64,000 nt of DNA from Escherichia coli (GTDB taxonomy: Bacteria; Pseudomonadota; Gammaproteobacteria; Enterobacterales; Enterobacteriaceae): NCBI RefSeq assembly GCF_046105845.1, contig NZ_CP151004.1. The stretch is one strand, 5' to 3'. How positions within the stretch are numbered: the first letter of the stretch is position 1; each line of letters begins with the position of its first letter. Positions 54,632 to 61,798 of this stretch are shown here, in pieces. The translations under genes and the position numbers were made by a program. The notes below the pieces were generated by a model. The model searched no databases, was not told the DNA's origin, and worked only from the letters and a program-made list of their open reading frames with translations.

Positions 54632-56032
54632 ATGGACCAGAAGCTGTTAACGGATTTCCGCTCAGAACTACTCGATTCACGTTTTGGCGCAAAGGCCATT
54701 TCTACTATCGCGGAGTCAAAACGATTTCCGCTGCATGAAATGCGCGATGATGTCGCATTCCAGATTATCAATGATGAATTATATCTTGATGGCAACGCTC
54801 GTCAGAACCTGGCCACTTTCTGCCAGACCTGGGACGACGAAAATGTCCACAAGTTGATGGATTTATCCATTAACAAAAACTGGATCGACAAAGAAGAATA
54901 TCCGCAATCTGCAGCCATCGACCTGCGTTGCGTAAACATGGTTGCCGATCTGTGGCATGCGCCTGCGCCGAAAAATGGTCAGGCCGTTGGCACCAACACC
55001 ATTGGTTCTTCCGAGGCCTGTATGCTCGGCGGGATGGCGATGAAATGGCGTTGGCGCAAGCGTATGGAAGCTGCAGGCAAACCGACCAACAAACCAAACC
55101 TGGTGTGCGGTCCGGTACAAATCTGCTGGCATAAATTCGCCCGCTACTGGGATGTGGAGCTGCGTGAGATCCCTATGCGCCCCGGTCAGTTGTTTATGGA
55201 CCCGAAACGCATGATTGAAGCCTGCGACGAAAACACCATCGGCGTGGTGCCGACTTTCGGCGTGACCTACACCGGTAACTATGAGTTCCCGCAACCGCTG
55301 CACGATGCGCTGGATAAATTCCAGGCCGACACCGGTATCGACATCGACATGCACATCGACGCCGCCAGCGGTGGCTTCCTGGCACCGTTCGTCGCCCCGG
55401 ATATCGTCTGGGACTTCCGCCTGCCGCGTGTGAAATCGATCAGTGCTTCAGGCCATAAATTCGGTCTGGCTCCGCTGGGCTGCGGCTGGGTTATCTGGCG
55501 TGATGAAGAAGCGCTGCCGCAGGAACTGGTGTTCAACGTTGACTATCTCGGTGGTCAGATAGGGACTTTCGCCATCAACTTCTCCCGCCCGGCGGGTCAG
55601 GTAATTGCACAGTACTATGAATTCCTGCGCCTCGGTCGTGAAGGCTATACCAAAGTACAGAACGCCTCTTACCAGGTTGCCGCTTATCTGGCGGATGAAA
55701 TCGCCAAACTGGGGCCGTATGAGTTCATCTGTACCGGTCGCCCGGACGAAGGCATCCCGGCGGTTTGCTTCAAACTGAAAGATGGTGAAGATCCGGGATA
55801 CACCCTCTACGACCTCTCTGAACGTCTGCGTCTGCGCGGCTGGCAGGTTCCGGCCTTCACTCTCGGCGGTGAAGCCACCGACATCGTGGTGATGCGCATT
55901 ATGTGTCGTCGCGGCTTCGAAATGGACTTTGCTGAACTGTTGCTGGAAGACTACAAAGCCTCCCTGAAATATCTCAGCGATCACCCGAAACTGCAGGGTA
56001 TTGCCCAGCAGAACAGCTTTAAACACACCTGA
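54632..56032 (+). CDS. gadA: Glutamate decarboxylase alpha (PLP-dependent), 466 aa
   Basis: ORF-track frame 54569..56032 trimmed to ATG at 54632 ([23 protein letters not shown]…); AGGAG RBS; adjacent to gadX, so gadA rather than gadB. Confidence 0.96.
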
Positions 56033-56050
56033 TAACATAACGTTGTAAAA

Positions 56051-56098
56051 ACCGAATGCCCAACCTTTAAAAAACAGTTGGGCATTCGGTTGCTTATT
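56051..56098 (+). terminator. Hairpin terminator downstream of gadA
   Basis: ACCGAATGCCCAAC…GTTGGGCATTCGGT perfect 14-bp inverted repeat followed by TGCTTATT. Confidence 0.65.
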
Positions 56099-56400
56099 AA
56101 TCGCAATAATATATTGGCTGTCTATTCATCGTGTTGATAAGATATATGTTATATGAATGTTTATTAAATGTAGCAATTATATTTAATGTAACAAAAAGGG
56201 ATTATTTGCTTACTATTAATTTCCCTGCGTTCTTATACACGTTTTTGTATTATAAATCCAGTCATCCTGCCCGTAGAACATCACACATTATCATCCTGTT
56301 TTCCCGCTTCGTTTAAATTTATTTATCAATCAATTTGACTTAAGAGGGCGGCGTGCTACATTAATAAACAGTAATATGTTTATGTAATATTAAGCCAACT

Positions 56401-57225
56401 ATGCAATCACTACATGGGAATTGTCTAATTGCGTACGCAAGACATAAATATATTCTCACCATGGTTAATGGTGAATATCGCTATTTTAATGGCGGTGATC
56501 TGGTTTTTGCGGATGCAAGCCAAATTCAAGTGGATAAGTGTGTTGAGAATTTCGTATTAGTTTCAAGAGACACGCTTTCATTATTTCTCCCGATGCTCAA
56601 GGAGGAGGCATTAAAACTTCATGCACATAAAAAAGTTCCTGCATTACTCGTTCATCACTGTACCAGAGATATTCCTGTTTTTCAGGAAGTTGCGCAACTA
56701 TCGCAGAATAAGAATCTTCGCTATGCAGAAATGCTACGTAAAAGGGCATTAATCTTTGCGTTGTTATCTGTTTTTCTTGAGGATACGCAGTTTATACCGT
56801 TACTTCTGAACGTGTTGCAACCGAACATGCGAACACGAGTTTGTACGGTCATCAATAATAATATCGCCCATGAGTGGACATTAGCCCGAATCGCTAGCGA
56901 ATTGTTGATGAGTCCAAGCCTGTTAAAGAAAAAATTGCGCGAAGAAGGTACGTCATATTCACAGTTGCTTACTGAGTGTAGAATGCAGCGTGCTTTACAA
57001 CTTATTGTTATATATGGTGTTTCAATTAAGCGAGTTGCAGTATCCTGTGGATATCACAGCGTGTCGTATTTCATTTACGTTTTTCGAAATTATTATGGGA
57101 TGACGCCCACAGAGTATCAGGAGCGATCGGCGCAGGAATTACCGAACTGTGGCTCGGCGGCAAGTATGGCTGCGCAAGGGAATTTTTACGGCACTGACCG
57201 TTCTGCGGAAGGAATAAGATTATAG
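56401..57225 (+). CDS. gadX: AraC-family acid-resistance regulator, 274 aa
   Basis: 274-aa ORF with C-terminal AraC HTH, recognised as GadX. Confidence 0.95.
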   Translation: MQSLHGNCLIAYARHKYILTMVNGEYRYFNGGDLVFADASQIQVDKCVENFVLVSRDTLSLFLPMLKEEALKLHAHKKVPALLVHHCTRDIPVFQEVAQLSQNKNLRYAEMLRKRALIFALLSVFLEDTQFIPLLLNVLQPNMRTRVCTVINNNIAHEWTLARIASELLMSPSLLKKKLREEGTSYSQLLTECRMQRALQLIVIYGVSIKRVAVSCGYHSVSYFIYVFRNYYGMTPTEYQERSAQELPNCGSAASMAAQGNFYGTDRSAEGIRL

Positions 57226-57241
57226 AGTTTTACTCAGACAT

Positions 57242-57347
57242 AAAAAAAACCCGGCATAGGGGACCGGGAAGAGGATAGTCTGCCGTCTCCAGACTAATAA
57301 ACCGTTATAACACTCCCTGTTGGCACGGGAAACTTTGTGCTCTCAGT
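57242..57347 (-). ncRNA. gadY: GadY small RNA (antisense to the gadX 3' UTR)
   Basis: Minus-strand sequence ACTGAGAGCACAAAGTTTCCCGTGCCAACAGGGAGTGTTATAACGGTTTATTAGTCTGGAGACGGCAGACTATCCTCTTCCCGGTCCCCTATGCCGGGTTTTTTTT matches recalled GadY and ends in a hairpin plus U8 terminator. Confidence 0.85.
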
Positions 57348-57593
57348 AAGTTAAATATAACTTTTACTGGAAATAAGATCAGCCATTTTTTTATAAACAT
57401 AAGCTATACGCTGTGCGAAAATATATTCGTGCTGCATTTACTTATTATCAATTAACTGTTATGCAAAACTACTTTGTGGATAAATTTTGGTCCTACCAAA
57501 TCTGGCAGTTTTTGCGCTAAGAAACAGTCTGGCATCATTTCATTAGTATACTGAAATTGAAATAATCGCAGTAATGAAATATAAGGGATAGTC

Positions 57594-58322
57594 ATGACTC
57601 ATGTCTGCTCGGTGATCCTCGTTCGTCGTTCATTCGATATTTATCATGAACAGCAAAAAATATCGTTGCACAACGAGAGTATCCTGTTACTGGATAAAAA
57701 TTTGGCAGACGATTTTACGTTTTGTTCACCGGATACGCGACGACTGGATATCGATGAGCTGACAGTTTGCCATTACTTACAAAATATTCGTCAGATACCA
57801 CGCAATTTAGGGTTACATAGCAAAGACCGTCTGTTAATTAACCAGTCACCCCCCATGCCGCTGGTGACGGCGATTTTTGATAGTTTCAATGACTCTGGGG
57901 TAAATTCGCCGATACTGAGCAAAATGCTCTATCTTTCCTGTTTATCGATGTTTTCTCATAAGAAAGAACTGATCCCCTTACTTTTCAATAGTATCAGTAC
58001 TGTTTCAGGAAAAGTTGAACGCCTTATTAGCTTTGATATCGCTAAACGTTGGTATCTGCGCGATATCGCGGAAAGAATGTATACCAGCGAGAGTCTCATC
58101 AAAAAAAAGTTGCAGGATGAAAATACCTGTTTCAGTAAAATATTACTCGCCTCCAGGATGTCGATGGCCAGACGATTACTCGAGTTACGTCAAATTCCTC
58201 TGCATACTATTGCGGAAAAATGTGGCTATAGCAGTACGTCGTACTTTATAAACACATTTCGACAATATTATGGTGTAACGCCACATCAGTTTGCGCAACA
58301 TTCGCCAGGTACCTTTTCCTGA
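57594..58322 (+). CDS. gadW: AraC-family acid-resistance regulator, 242 aa
   Basis: 242-aa ORF with C-terminal AraC HTH, recognised as GadW. Confidence 0.95.
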   Translation: MTHVCSVILVRRSFDIYHEQQKISLHNESILLLDKNLADDFTFCSPDTRRLDIDELTVCHYLQNIRQIPRNLGLHSKDRLLINQSPPMPLVTAIFDSFNDSGVNSPILSKMLYLSCLSMFSHKKELIPLLFNSISTVSGKVERLISFDIAKRWYLRDIAERMYTSESLIKKKLQDENTCFSKILLASRMSMARRLLELRQIPLHTIAEKCGYSSTSYFINTFRQYYGVTPHQFAQHSPGTFS

Positions 58323-58466
58323 CATATTTTGCATTTGAATATTGGTCAGGATCTCACACCTGCTTCATGTGAAACTCTTCCCTGATGATTTCTGCCGGGC
58401 TACCGGCTAGTTCTCTTTCGCAGTTTGCCAGGCGGTATAGGTATTTTCAGGAGGAAAAGACTCGGC

Positions 58467-58748
58467 ATGTTTGGGATTATTAAGCTGACAATTCATACGA
58501 TTACGGGAATGTGGGTCAGTATTGTGTTGTTTAAATTGATGACGAATGGCTGGAGTGGTTTCTACTTTCAGTGCTGTGTACTAAGCCTGGTATTCCTGAC
58601 GGTTAGCTGGTTGTTGAGTGGTGAATGGTTAGCAGGAAAGAGTAAGGCTGAATCCTCACGTTCAACCTTACTCTCATTTACACGTTACGCTTTTTTAAAG
58701 CGGGCAAAGAGATGTTCCACTACAACGAAAAAGACCGGAACGAAGTAA
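58467..58748 (+). CDS. Hypothetical 93-aa hydrophobic small protein (candidate only)
   Basis: ATG at 58467 preceded by AGGAGG at 58449-58454 (12-nt spacer, longer than optimal); two hydrophobic segments; last 64 nt overlap the mdtF 3' end on the opposite strand. Confidence 0.2.
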
Positions 58749-61700
58749 ATTGCCAGCACTGTTGCGGCAAACATCCCGCCCATCACGCCGGTACCTACCG
58801 CGTTTTGCGCGCCAGAACCGGCACCATGACTGATAACCAGCGGCAGCACGCCGAGAATAAAGGCCAGAGAGGTCATCAGGATTGGGCGTAAACGCATTCG
58901 CGCCGCTTCGATGATCGCCTCTATCGGCGTTTTCCCTTCTTTCTGCATCATCTCAACGGCAAATTCGACAATCAGGATGGCGTTTTTGGCGGAAAGCCCG
59001 ATGGTGGTCAGCAAACCAACCTGGAAGTAGACGTCATTACTTAAGCCGCGTAGATCGGTGGCCAGTAATGCGCCAACGACGCCTAACGGTACAACCAACA
59101 TCACCGAGAACGGAATTGACCAGCTCTCATAAAGTGCGGCGAGGGCGAGGAACACCACGACCAGTGAAATGGCATACAGCGCGGGAGCCTGGTTTGAGGA
59201 TAACGCTTCCTGATACGACAGTCCGGTCCATGAGTAGCCGACGCCTGCCGGAAGTTTAGCGACCAGGTCTGCCATAAATTTCATGGCGTCACCGGTACTT
59301 TTCCCGGCCGCCGCTTCACCTAAAATCTCCATTGACGGGATGCCGTTGTAGCGTTCCAGTCGCGGTGAACCATAGGTCCATTCGGTAGACGAATAGGCAG
59401 AAAGCGGTGCCATCGTGCCAGAGGCGTTGCGTACATACCACTGGTTGATGTTATCCGGCAACATACGGAACGGCGTGCCTGCCTGGACATACACTTTTTT
59501 CACCCGCCCCTGGTTGAGGAAGTCGTTCACGTAGCTGCTGCCGAAGGCGGTGGAAATTGTCTGGTTGATATCAGACAGCGCCACACCCATTGCCTCGGCT
59601 TTCGCGGCGTTGACGTTCACTTTGAACATCGGTGTATCTTCCAGGCCGTTCGGGCGTACCCCGGTGACTTGATTCGGTGATTGCGCTGCCAGTGATAATA
59701 GCTCGTTTCGCGCCTGGGTCAGTTTTTCGTGCCCCAGGTTGCCGTTGTCCAGCAGTTCCATATCAAAACCTGACGCGGTACCCAGTTCAGCCACCGCAGG
59801 TAAGTTGAACGGGAAGACGACGGCTTTATTGATACTGCTTAACGCAATCATTGCCCGCTGAATGATCGCGGTAACCGAGTTTTCCTCACCGACACGTTCA
59901 GACCACGGTTTGAGGCTGATAAACGCCAGACCGTTGTTTTGCCCCTGGCCGCTGAAGCCAAAGCCGCCAACGGTAAACACCGACTGAACATTATCTTTCT
60001 CTTTAGTCAGATAATAATCCGTCACCTGTTGCAGCACTTTCGTGGTGTTAACCATGGTGGCACCGGAAGGTAACTGCGCGGTGGTCATAAATACCCCCTG
60101 ATCCTCTTCTGGTAAGAAAGAGGTCGGCGTACGCAGGAACAGCACCGCCATCCCGGCGCAAATCAGCAGGTAGACCACCATGTAGCGACCGGTACAACGC
60201 AACAGCGAGCGGGTGCTATCGGTATAGTGCTGAGTTGATTTTTCAAACAGCGTGTTGAAGCGTGCGAACAGGGCGTTAGGTTTATGACCGCCTTCCGGCG
60301 CGGCTTTCAGAATGGTGGCGCACAGGGCAGGAGTCAGGCTCATTGCCACAAATACTGAAAGCAGCATGGAGGAGATCAGCGTGATGGAGAACTGGCGGTA
60401 GATCTCCCCGGTTGCACCGCTCATAAAGGCCATCGGCATAAACACTGCGGAAAGAACAACGGCAATCCCGACCAGCGCACGTTGGATCTGCCCCATCGAT
60501 TTATGCGTTGCTTCCTTCGGCGGTAGCTTATCTTCCGCAATGACACGCTCGACGTTCTCCACCACCACGATGGCGTCATCCACCAGTAACCCTATCGCCA
60601 GCACCATCCCGAACATAGTTAACGTGTTGATGGTGAAACCGACCGCCGACAAGATCGCAAACGTCCCGAGAATAACCACCGGTACGGCAATCGTCGGGAT
60701 GATTGTGGCACGGAAATTCTGCAAAAACAGATACATGACTAGGAAGACGAGGATGATAGCCTCAACCAGTGTTTTAAAAACTTCCTGAATAGAAATTTCG
60801 ATAAACGGCGTGGTGTCGTAAGGATAAACCGTCTTCAGACTTGCGGGGAAATAGGCTGATAAGCGGTTCAGCTCCTCTTTGACTGCCCGCGAGGTATCCA
60901 GGGCGTTTGCTCCGGTAGCCAGTTTGATGGCGATCCCGGCAGCAGGTTTGCCGTTATAGCGCGCCACGGTGGAATAATCTTCCGCTCCAAGTTCGACGCG
61001 GGCGACATCACGCAGCAGCACTTGCGAACCATCTTGCTGAACTTTCAACAGGATTTTGCCAAATTCTTCCGGCGTTTGCAGACGCGTCTGCACAATGATC
61101 GAGGCGTTTAGTTGCTGGTCTGCCGCCTGTGGCATGCCACCCAGTTGACCACCAGAAATCTGGTTGTTCTGCACCTTAATCTGGGAAATAACATCGGAAG
61201 GTACCAGATTGTATTTATTGAGTTTTTGCGGGTCCAGCCAGATACGCATGGCGTACTCGGAACCAAAGAGCTGTACGCTACCAACGCCCGCGGTACGGCT
61301 TAGCGGGTCTTTGATATTAGACGCTACATAGTCCGCGATATCGTACTGGTTGAGGCTGCCGTTATCAGAAATAAACGCCGCTACCATCAGGATATTACTG
61401 CTCGACTTATCGACGCTAATCCCCTGCTGCTGCACCGCTTCAGGTAATGAAGGCATAGCGAGTTGCAGTTTATTTTGCACCTGAACCTGTGCGATATCAG
61501 GAGATGTCCCAGTCTCGAAGGTCAGAGTGATAGAGGCATTGCCCGCCGCATCACTGGTTGAAGACATGTACATCAGGCCATCAAGCCCATTCATATTTTG
61601 CTCAATCACCTGAGTGACCGAGTCTTCTACCGTTTGCGCATCGGCACCTGGATAGGTAGCGCTGACGGTAATGGTCGGTGGCGCAATCTGCGGATACTGC

Positions 61701-61798
61701 GCAACCGGTAAGTTCATGATCGCCAGACCGCCTGCAAGCATCATAATAATGGCAAGTACCCAGGCAAAAACCGGGCGATCAATAAAATAGTTAGCCAT
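58685..61798 (-). CDS. mdtF: RND multidrug efflux transporter, 1037 aa
   Basis: 1037-aa ORF recognised as MdtF (AcrB family). Confidence 0.96.

Follow-up and report, generated by a model that had tools for sequence, protein, structure and literature searches.

The 93-codon open reading frame (ORF) located between gadW and mdtF in the stretch of Escherichia coli DNA analyzed here (64,000 nucleotides of contig NZ_CP151004.1, referred to as “the window”) is rcpA, i.e., “repressor of curli production A”, and is the same gene as the one published as sORF15; it is a real and already known gene that is missing from the standard annotation. The explanation that best accommodates the data, and a very probable one, is that rcpA encodes a genuine acid-induced inner-membrane protein, which most likely would act as an output of the Gad regulon that represses curli. 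What the present analysis adds is the link between the names rcpA and sORF15, proof from evolution that the frame is coding, and a delimitation of the part of the protein that is conserved. An earlier sequence-only reading of this DNA had singled out the ORF as unannotated, and this proved correct: no gene is annotated at the position of rcpA in NC_000913.3 (the RefSeq record of MG1655), nor in any of 40 annotated E. coli genomes chosen to span the range of identities. That the gene had already been published, both as rcpA and as sORF15, escaped this reading.

The window comprises the E. coli acid fitness island, in reversed orientation with respect to K-12, and the order gadW, rcpA and convergent mdtF is identical in K-12 (Table 1). 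The start of rcpA lies 144 nt 3′ of gadW on the same strand of the window; the ATG, the AGGAGG upstream of it, the 12-nt spacing and the 93 codons are all present where the earlier reading had placed them, and the machine-made ORF list opens the frame earlier, at a TTG (58425) that would yield 107 aa. The rcpA region is found with at least 95% identity in 5414 of 5426 complete genomes, about six of the 5414 having less than 80% coverage of it. An Rfam scan of positions 55000–60000 (E ≤ 1) returned GadY as its sole match and none within the rcpA ORF.

Table 1. Features of the gadX–mdtF region of the window (positions of the window; + is the strand shown).
Feature	Position	Strand	Basis or remark
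gadX	56401-57225	+	
GadY sRNA	57237-57350	-	Rfam, 150 bits
gadW, AraC-family acid-resistance regulator	57594-58322	+	ORF list; annotation of matching E. coli genomes
Shine-Dalgarno AGGAGG	58449-58454	+	sequence; 12-nt spacer to ATG
rcpA (= sORF15) CDS	58467-58748	+	ATG 58467-58469; 93 codons; TAA 58746-58748
rcpA conserved core, codons 1-54	58467-58628	+	two TM helices, NGWSGF loop, CC motif
Rho-dependent termination region peak (published; K-12 3663625, minus strand)	58587	+	K-12/window alignment
Hairpin AGAGTAAGG...CCTTACTCT, 16 bp, in rcpA codons 58-70	~58638-58675	-	sequence and folding
rcpA 3′ end / mdtF 3′ end antisense overlap, 64 nt	58685-58748	both	ORF coordinates
mdtF, RND multidrug efflux permease, convergent neighbor	58685-61798	-	ORF list; annotation

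Two papers, neither of which cites the other, describe this gene. Nhu et al. (2018, mBio, PMC6106082) reported rcpA as MS7163_03831 of the UPEC strain MS7163, a CDS of 282 bp encoding 93 aa directly 3′ of gadW; for its product they predicted two TM helices, with the C-terminus in the cytoplasm. The published rcpA qRT-PCR primers have exact and single matches in the window at 58534–58552 (+) and 58632–58650 (−), as does the rcpA screening primer at 58499–58516 (−), and it is because these primers map inside it that the ORF can be equated with rcpA. The partner screening primer falls in the 3′ end of gadW (58288–58305); it differs from the window at one base but matches four of six sampled E. 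coli strains exactly, among them the B2 strain Nissle 1917. The likeness of MS7163 rcpA to the ORF of the window concerns primers, size and position, the curli phenotype being that of MS7163 and UTI89. On the other hand, Schumacher et al. (2023, mSystems, PMC10746267) called by hand, in the gadW 3′ UTR of K-12, the 93-aa sORF15 (NC_000913.3:3663464-3663745, minus strand), to which (Table S7) the product of the window ORF is identical at 91 of 93 residues (98%), with equal length and start. Residue 63 is S in the window and P in the common E. coli allele. The 2023 paper mentions neither rcpA nor curli and proposes instead a link with GadC or MdtF; in the literature on sORF15/gadW and on rcpA/curli no paper joining the two names and no mechanistic follow-up was found.

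In K-12, both the RNA and the ribosome footprints of sORF15 increase approximately 16-fold at pH 4.4, the Ribo-seq log2FC being +4.2 (padj 1e-38; pH 4.4 vs pH 7.6) and that of the RNA at pH 4.4 +4.0, with unchanged translation efficiency (PMC10746267). sORF15 was placed by the same authors in the “long 3′ UTR” and transcription unit of gadW (PMC10746267), and a promoter scan of 58200–58900 returned no sigma-70-like site and no support for a promoter belonging to rcpA itself; the lack of such a site between gadW and rcpA is consistent with the published view that the gadW transcript extends into rcpA at its 3′ end.

The effect on curli was described with Tn5 insertions at −23, −25 and −26 from the rcpA ATG (PMC6106082), which correspond to positions 58444, 58442 and 58441 of the window, just upstream of the AGGAGG. 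In the Tn5 read-in mutant the rcpA transcript is up 3.2-fold, csgD is down ~70-fold and csgA ~4000-fold (PMC6106082). Indeed, this mutant, a chromosomal insertion of the PcL promoter and the plasmid pRcpA each abolish curli and lower the csgD and csgA transcripts; furthermore, the loss of curli was reproduced in UTI89 and the PcL-rcpA strain was outcompeted in the mouse bladder (PMC6106082). The induction by acid (~16-fold) is larger than the 3.2-fold increase that suffices for the loss of curli, from which one would expect curli to be repressed via RcpA in severe acid. The curli study (PMC6106082) contains no start-codon mutant of rcpA, and no loss-of-function mutant was found in the literature. 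The curli phenotype is that of overexpression of a hydrophobic peptide only, and generic envelope stress could explain it.

Transcription of the region may also be subject to control by Rho. In the data of Adams et al. (2021, eLife, Supplementary file 2) a Rho-dependent region peaks at K-12 3663625 (−), a coordinate carried over to the window via a gap-free K-12/window alignment. Coverage upstream and downstream was 100 and 25, respectively, without the Rho inhibitor bicyclomycin (BCM) and 415 and 267 with BCM, while the Rho score of 2.57 (P = 2.9e-5), obtained in LB, refers to windows of 800 nt and is therefore coarse. These data suggest, as a lead of coarse resolution, that the majority of transcripts end prematurely inside rcpA when the gene is not induced. 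For K-12 3663400–3663899 the same source lists no curated 3′ ends but only the Rho region.

As to the product, RcpA is predicted to be a 93-residue inner-membrane protein with TM helices at residues ~4–26 and ~31–54 connected by a short, invariant NGWSGF loop. Kyte-Doolittle values above 1.6 are reached by 19-residue windows that start at residues 4 and 31–38, DeepTMHMM assigned two TM helices to sORF15 (PMC10746267), and the tail (residues 51–93) contains 11 K+R vs 2 D+E; the small two-helix membrane protein that the earlier reading had anticipated is thus supported by two hydrophobic segments followed by a basic tail. Both hydropathy and the positive-inside rule point to an N-in/C-in hairpin in which the loop would be periplasmic and the basic tail cytoplasmic. 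AlphaFold2, run with a 9-sequence alignment, modeled helices at 2–26 and 31–86 at low confidence (mean pLDDT 64.7, pTM 0.29). Scans of RcpA against Pfam and NCBIfam yielded no family at E ≤ 10. That the gene might encode a type I toxin was considered and rejected, overexpressing strains having been seen to grow and to colonize plates (PMC6106082) and no Pfam match having been obtained.

RcpA resembles MgrB and SafA in being a small, hydrophobic, stress-induced protein of the inner membrane that alters the transcription of a distant regulon. MgrB and SafA are small inner-membrane proteins that modulate sensor kinases. The resemblance extends to gene organization in that rcpA, like safA in safA-ydeO, is co-transcribed with the gene of an AraC-family acid-response regulator. 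Unlike MgrB and SafA, RcpA has two helices instead of one and has no sequence similarity to them, so that the likeness is a functional analogy; homology to either protein was not found, there being no Pfam match and profile searches leading to Escherichia orthologues only. The analogy with MgrB was already offered by Nhu et al. (PMC6106082). By this analogy, RcpA could tentatively be regarded as a connector that acts at the membrane, in the manner of MgrB and SafA, on a signaling system controlling csgD, a suggestion that we hold to be possible but short of probable.

Could RcpA instead be an accessory subunit of MdtEF, as AcrZ is for AcrB, or of the GadC antiporter, the loss of curli being a side effect of its overexpression? 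An association with GadC or MdtF has been proposed by Schumacher et al. (PMC10746267); rcpA is convergent with mdtF and overlaps it within one acid fitness island, this convergent arrangement is kept across the genus, including E. fergusonii, and RND pumps are known to be bound by small membrane proteins, AcrZ pulling down both AcrB and MdtF. RcpA is indeed similar to AcrZ in being a small membrane protein linked genetically or physically to an RND permease. However, AcrZ has 49 aa and one TM helix whereas RcpA has 93 aa, two hydrophobic segments and another topology; RcpA is unrelated in sequence to AcrZ or to any Pfam family, the search for membership of the AcrZ Pfam family having given no Pfam or NCBIfam match at E ≤ 10, and rcpA lies on the strand opposite to mdtEF, as part of the gadW and not of the mdtEF transcript. 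Interaction data for RcpA were not found in the literature searched, and curli are already abolished when the transcript rises 3.2-fold, which argues for a specific regulatory effect. An accessory subunit is therefore an unlikely identity for RcpA.

That rcpA is a selected coding gene can be deduced from its evolution. The locus was collected from six GTDB Escherichia species representatives found via GadW (including E. albertii, E. whittamii, Escherichia sp. E1V33 and strain E69), from K-12 and from six further E. coli (including Nissle 1917, O157 Sakai and W). In 14 of 14 Escherichia sequences rcpA has exactly 93 codons, keeps the ATG and the AGGAGG and contains no indel, whereas the 144-nt spacer 5′ of it has, in the same set, several indels including an 11-bp deletion. 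At the Shine-Dalgarno sequence, TTTTCAGGAGGAAAA is unchanged in all eight Escherichia sequences compared, with variable flanks. The dN/dS of the rcpA frame (NG86, i.e., Nei-Gojobori 1986) vs the window sequence is 0.07–0.27 over the 72 codons outside the mdtF overlap, as compared with ~0.3–3 in the two other frames of the same DNA; with respect to E. albertii, dS is 0.78 and dN 0.069. Codons 1–57 of rcpA overlap with no other feature and contain 40 synonymous vs 29 non-synonymous changes, only 35 of their 171 sites being synonymous (binomial P = 1.4e-11), and in codons 1–55 the variable columns are distributed over codon positions 1, 2 and 3 as 16:8:33. An opposite-strand gene was considered as a source of this periodicity and rejected, the minus strand being without an ORF of at least 25 aa over 58497–58684. 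Furthermore, the six added E. coli strains, which belong to different lineages, encode one identical RcpA protein despite silent differences. In the same genomes sORF14, a published neighboring candidate (58369–58410), is not conserved: depending on the genome, the stop or the GTG start is missing, the frame is shifted, or a stop codon interrupts it. Judged from these substitution patterns, rcpA is under purifying selection, and this in its own frame only. The comparison of conservation and of synonymous and non-synonymous substitutions, by which the sequence-only reading had suggested verifying the ORF, therefore gives an intact frame in 14 Escherichia sequences with a dN/dS of 0.07–0.27, and the suspicion that the ORF could be spurious gives way, on account of these intact sequences and of the substitution pattern, to that of a real gene.

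Translation itself is documented by two types of published data. sORF15-3xFLAG, expressed from pBAD24 upon arabinose induction with 15 nt of its native leader, is positive in Western blots (PMC10746267), and since the FLAG tag is C-terminal, ribosomes must be able to translate as far as the annotated stop, at least when the gene is on a plasmid. For the gene in its chromosomal place, translation is indicated by conventional Ribo-seq, as opposed to start-site mapping (PMC10746267); the TRAINSPOTTER supplements contain no match to rcpA in terms of start-site or N-terminal evidence.

The family to which RcpA belongs appears to be confined to the genus. When 1.84 billion representative proteins were searched with a profile, nothing but orthologues from Escherichia and assembly variants was retrieved, and in two word-indexed searches covering 5.8 billion proteins the family was found in Escherichia/Shigella records only. 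Homologues with >80% identity have been claimed in Vibrio, Klebsiella, Salmonella and Enterococcus (PMC10746267) and, across the two papers (PMC6106082 and PMC10746267), Vibrio, Klebsiella, Enterococcus or Achromobacter homologues of >80% identity are mentioned; none of these claimed non-Escherichia homologues was recovered in the profile and word-indexed searches, and they are probably mislabeled or contaminated assemblies.

The sole divergent relative found is a syntenic ORF of 54 aa in E. fergusonii ATCC 35469, which starts 19 nt after the stop of a GadW orthologue (62% identical to GadW) and ends 41 nt before the stop of mdtF, without overlapping it, and is followed by a GC-rich hairpin of its own. 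Its product shares 49% identity with RcpA over 41 residues, the DNA being 55% identical, and keeps GIIKL, GWSGFxFxCC and both hydrophobic helices; at synonymous sites the divergence from rcpA has reached saturation (pS 0.97), as against a pN of 0.30, and the differences are distributed over the three codon positions as 20:9:36. The identity of MdtF to the window protein is 92.7% in E. fergusonii and 97.1% in E. albertii, and because of this lower identity E. fergusonii can be taken as the most divergent lineage at the locus. The tail of 39 residues, which E. coli, E. albertii and the cryptic clades possess and E. fergusonii lacks, may have been either gained or lost. Since E. fergusonii retains the two-helix core only, the selected unit is the two-helix hairpin.

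In the C-terminal third of rcpA, codons 58–72, which run through the hairpin listed in Table 1, have accumulated 7 synonymous and 9 non-synonymous changes, an indication of relaxed constraint. The hairpin noticed in the earlier reading is present; it is more stable when the minus-strand RNA is folded (−23.2 kcal/mol, z = −4.2) than in the plus-strand RNA, which has the sense of rcpA (−17.8 kcal/mol, z = −2.2). In an alignment of 10 sequences all 16 pairs of the stem are preserved in most, two being broken in one or two sequences, there is one compensatory change from U-A to C-G, and the U-G pairs function only in the minus-strand RNA, as they correspond to A-C mismatches on the rcpA strand. 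Because the hairpin starts ~10 nt past the mdtF stop and is conserved for the minus strand, it is probably the terminator of mdtEF. The earlier guess that it is a terminator is hence plausible, with the difference that the opposite (mdtEF) transcript is the one that it fits better. Beyond the hairpin the frame runs, as had been pointed out, 64 nt into the 3′ end of mdtF: codons 73–93 of rcpA lie antisense to the 3′-terminal 20 codons of mdtF and its stop, in a register in which the third codon positions of the two genes coincide. All variable sites of this overlap are at codon position 3 of rcpA and 11 of 11 changes are synonymous for rcpA; given the coincidence of the third positions, the invariance of the basic tail is inseparable from the constraint imposed by MdtF.

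Alleles lacking the tail also occur in E. coli. Proteins of 47 aa (consistent with a stop at W48; 370 contigs), 54 aa (306 contigs) and 56 aa (131 contigs) are found at low frequency in the assemblies and end directly after helix 2, while the two commonest full-length alleles are found in at least 1000 contigs each. Many database variants have frameshifts in homopolymer runs of the tail, some of which are probably assembly errors, and in one complete O121 genome an IS66 element is inserted in the rcpA ORF. The long 12-nt Shine-Dalgarno spacing, the internal Rho region, the truncated alleles and the rare IS insertions have been counted as points against the best explanation. The sequence-only reading had regarded the C-terminal third with suspicion and had envisaged a gene shorter than the maximal frame; the tail-less E. 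fergusonii protein and the alleles of 47–56 aa give these views some footing, whereas the FLAG signal obtained from the plasmid argues for translation up to the stop.

These properties of the 3′ end also bear on the possibility that the functional product is an RNA, namely a gadW 3′ UTR acting as antisense on mdtF or on other mRNAs, with translation being either incidental or useful only in counteracting Rho. The 64-nt antisense overlap with mdtF together with the shared hairpin, the Rho termination region active inside the ORF under non-inducing conditions, the tail constraint, either relaxed or externally imposed (7 synonymous and 9 non-synonymous changes in codons 58–72), and a curli study without a start-codon mutant all speak for such an RNA. 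Nevertheless, the purifying signal is strong at the level of amino acids, is restricted to this frame and resides in codons 1–57, which overlap nothing else; the peptide is kept in E. fergusonii despite a DNA identity of 55% and no overlap with mdtF, and no Rfam family is found here, with GadY as the only match in 55000–60000. An RNA product is accordingly quite improbable, the substitution pattern contradicting it just as it contradicts the notion of a spurious ORF. The latter notion, i.e., that of a spurious or decaying frame whose footprints derive from pervasive translation of a long 3′ UTR, is hardly credible, since an ORF that is not called by PGAP or RefSeq, has a long Shine-Dalgarno spacing, occurs in many variants with frameshifts in the C-terminal third or stops after residue 47 and carries an IS66 insertion in one complete genome is nonetheless open without indels at a synonymous divergence of up to 0.78 (saturated vs E. 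fergusonii), has a dN/dS of ~0.1, falls below 80% region coverage in only ~6 of 5414 complete genomes and has full-length top alleles in at least 1000 contigs each vs a few hundred per truncated allele, while sORF14, with its lost start and stop, internal stop and frameshift, displays what non-conservation looks like.

If rcpA is, as we favor, a gene for an acid-induced inner-membrane repressor of curli, the following sequence of events can be envisaged. As shown in K-12, rcpA is expressed as a 3′ extension of the gadW transcript, and acid raises both its RNA and its ribosome footprints; as inferred from joining the two papers, RcpA would then most likely be a means by which the Gad regulon, under acid stress, turns off curli and biofilm matrix. 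The two-helix core is the selected part of the protein, whereas the DNA of the tail also forms the mdtF 3′ end and, probably, the mdtEF terminator. A more elaborate version of this scheme, which in its entirety we consider rather doubtful, would have the GadXW extreme-acid response switch off csgD and curli via a genus-restricted two-helix connector, whose synthesis might be gated by Rho inside the ORF as long as strong induction and translation of the gadW transcript do not occur, the tail being a frame extension across the mdtEF terminator into mdtF antisense.

For the specialist, the present analysis represents a useful consolidation rather than a surprise. The purifying selection seen throughout the genus and the 54-aa orthologue of E. 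fergusonii provide an evolutionary support that both papers lacked and justify annotating rcpA, a gene that even the reference annotation of the best-studied bacterium omits and that most omics analyses consequently fail to see. Finally, when the two papers are joined, a testable hypothesis emerges, namely that an acid stress like that of the stomach may repress the biofilm matrix of E. coli via RcpA.

The two-helix core of RcpA constitutes the whole of the syntenic orthologue of E. fergusonii, a product of 54 aa that the source annotation describes as a "putative exported protein". Its reading frame starts 19 nt past the stop codon of the gadW-like gene, no Shine–Dalgarno sequence being visible before this start, and ends 41 nt short of mdtF, the hairpin GGCCGGTTTCCCGGCC coming after it. 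Natural RcpA alleles that stop directly past helix 2 are also found in assemblies of E. coli and Shigella flexneri (clusters P0039 and P0058–P0065 of the protein database searches) and are similar in length to the E. fergusonii form; these short alleles, represented by 370 contigs for the 47-aa, 306 for the 54-aa and 131 for the 56-aa products, in addition to others, may owe their length to a nonsense mutation, to an IS junction or to the end of a contig.

An outright interruption is seen in the complete genome of E. coli O121 strain 201805972, where an IS66-family element (tnpA, tnpB and tnpC), having an IS1 copy on its flank, splits the rcpA ORF near codon 14. Coverage of the region falls below 80% in approximately 6 of 5414 genomes. 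In the RcpA variant P0028, found in 30 contigs of a Logan assembly, residues have repeatedly been exchanged in the sense T-to-I, A-to-V, P-to-L or H-to-Y, a spectrum that C-to-T conversion would be expected to give; the variant probably derives from bisulfite-treated or deaminated sequencing reads and does not represent a natural RcpA allele.

Across the antisense overlap of rcpA with mdtF the two frames share their third codon positions, and the variation is confined to this shared position, all the changes observed being silent in rcpA.

The small ORF sORF14, located in the 3′ UTR of gadW, displays no conservation in a comparison of eight Escherichia sequences: its stop codon is gone in some of them, its GTG start is replaced by GTA in strain E69, its frame is broken in E. 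albertii and a stop lies inside it in E. whittamii. A small GC hairpin, GCCGGGCTACCGGC, overlaps sORF14 as well. That sORF14 gives rise to a functional peptide is unlikely.

As to GadW itself (window 57594–58322), comparison with the Escherichia loci L004–L007 and L017 (E. fergusonii) indicates an evolution that is rapid for a regulator: the E. coli protein shares 75–79% identity with its counterparts in E. albertii, E. whittamii and E1V33, and in E. fergusonii the figure is 62%. The adjoining MdtF retains 97% identity in E. albertii and 93% in E. fergusonii.

Positions of the features in and around rcpA
Feature	Position	Strand	Remarks
rcpA/mdtF antisense overlap	window 58685–58748		64 nt
Rho-dependent termination peak	window 58587 (K-12 3663625)	K-12 minus	Adams et al. 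2021
RcpA orthologue, syntenic	L017:8001–8165		54 aa; E. fergusonii ATCC 35469, CU928158.2
IS66-family insertion in rcpA	L009:1–3000		NZ_CP119441.1; insertion point ~window 58507
sORF14	window 58369–58410	+	published 13-aa candidate, GTG start; gadW 3′ UTR

Finally, Supplementary file 2 of Adams et al. (2021) lists, for growth in LB of neutral pH, a region of Rho-dependent termination having its peak within the rcpA ORF; termination by Rho within the ORF may act as a gate on rcpA expression.
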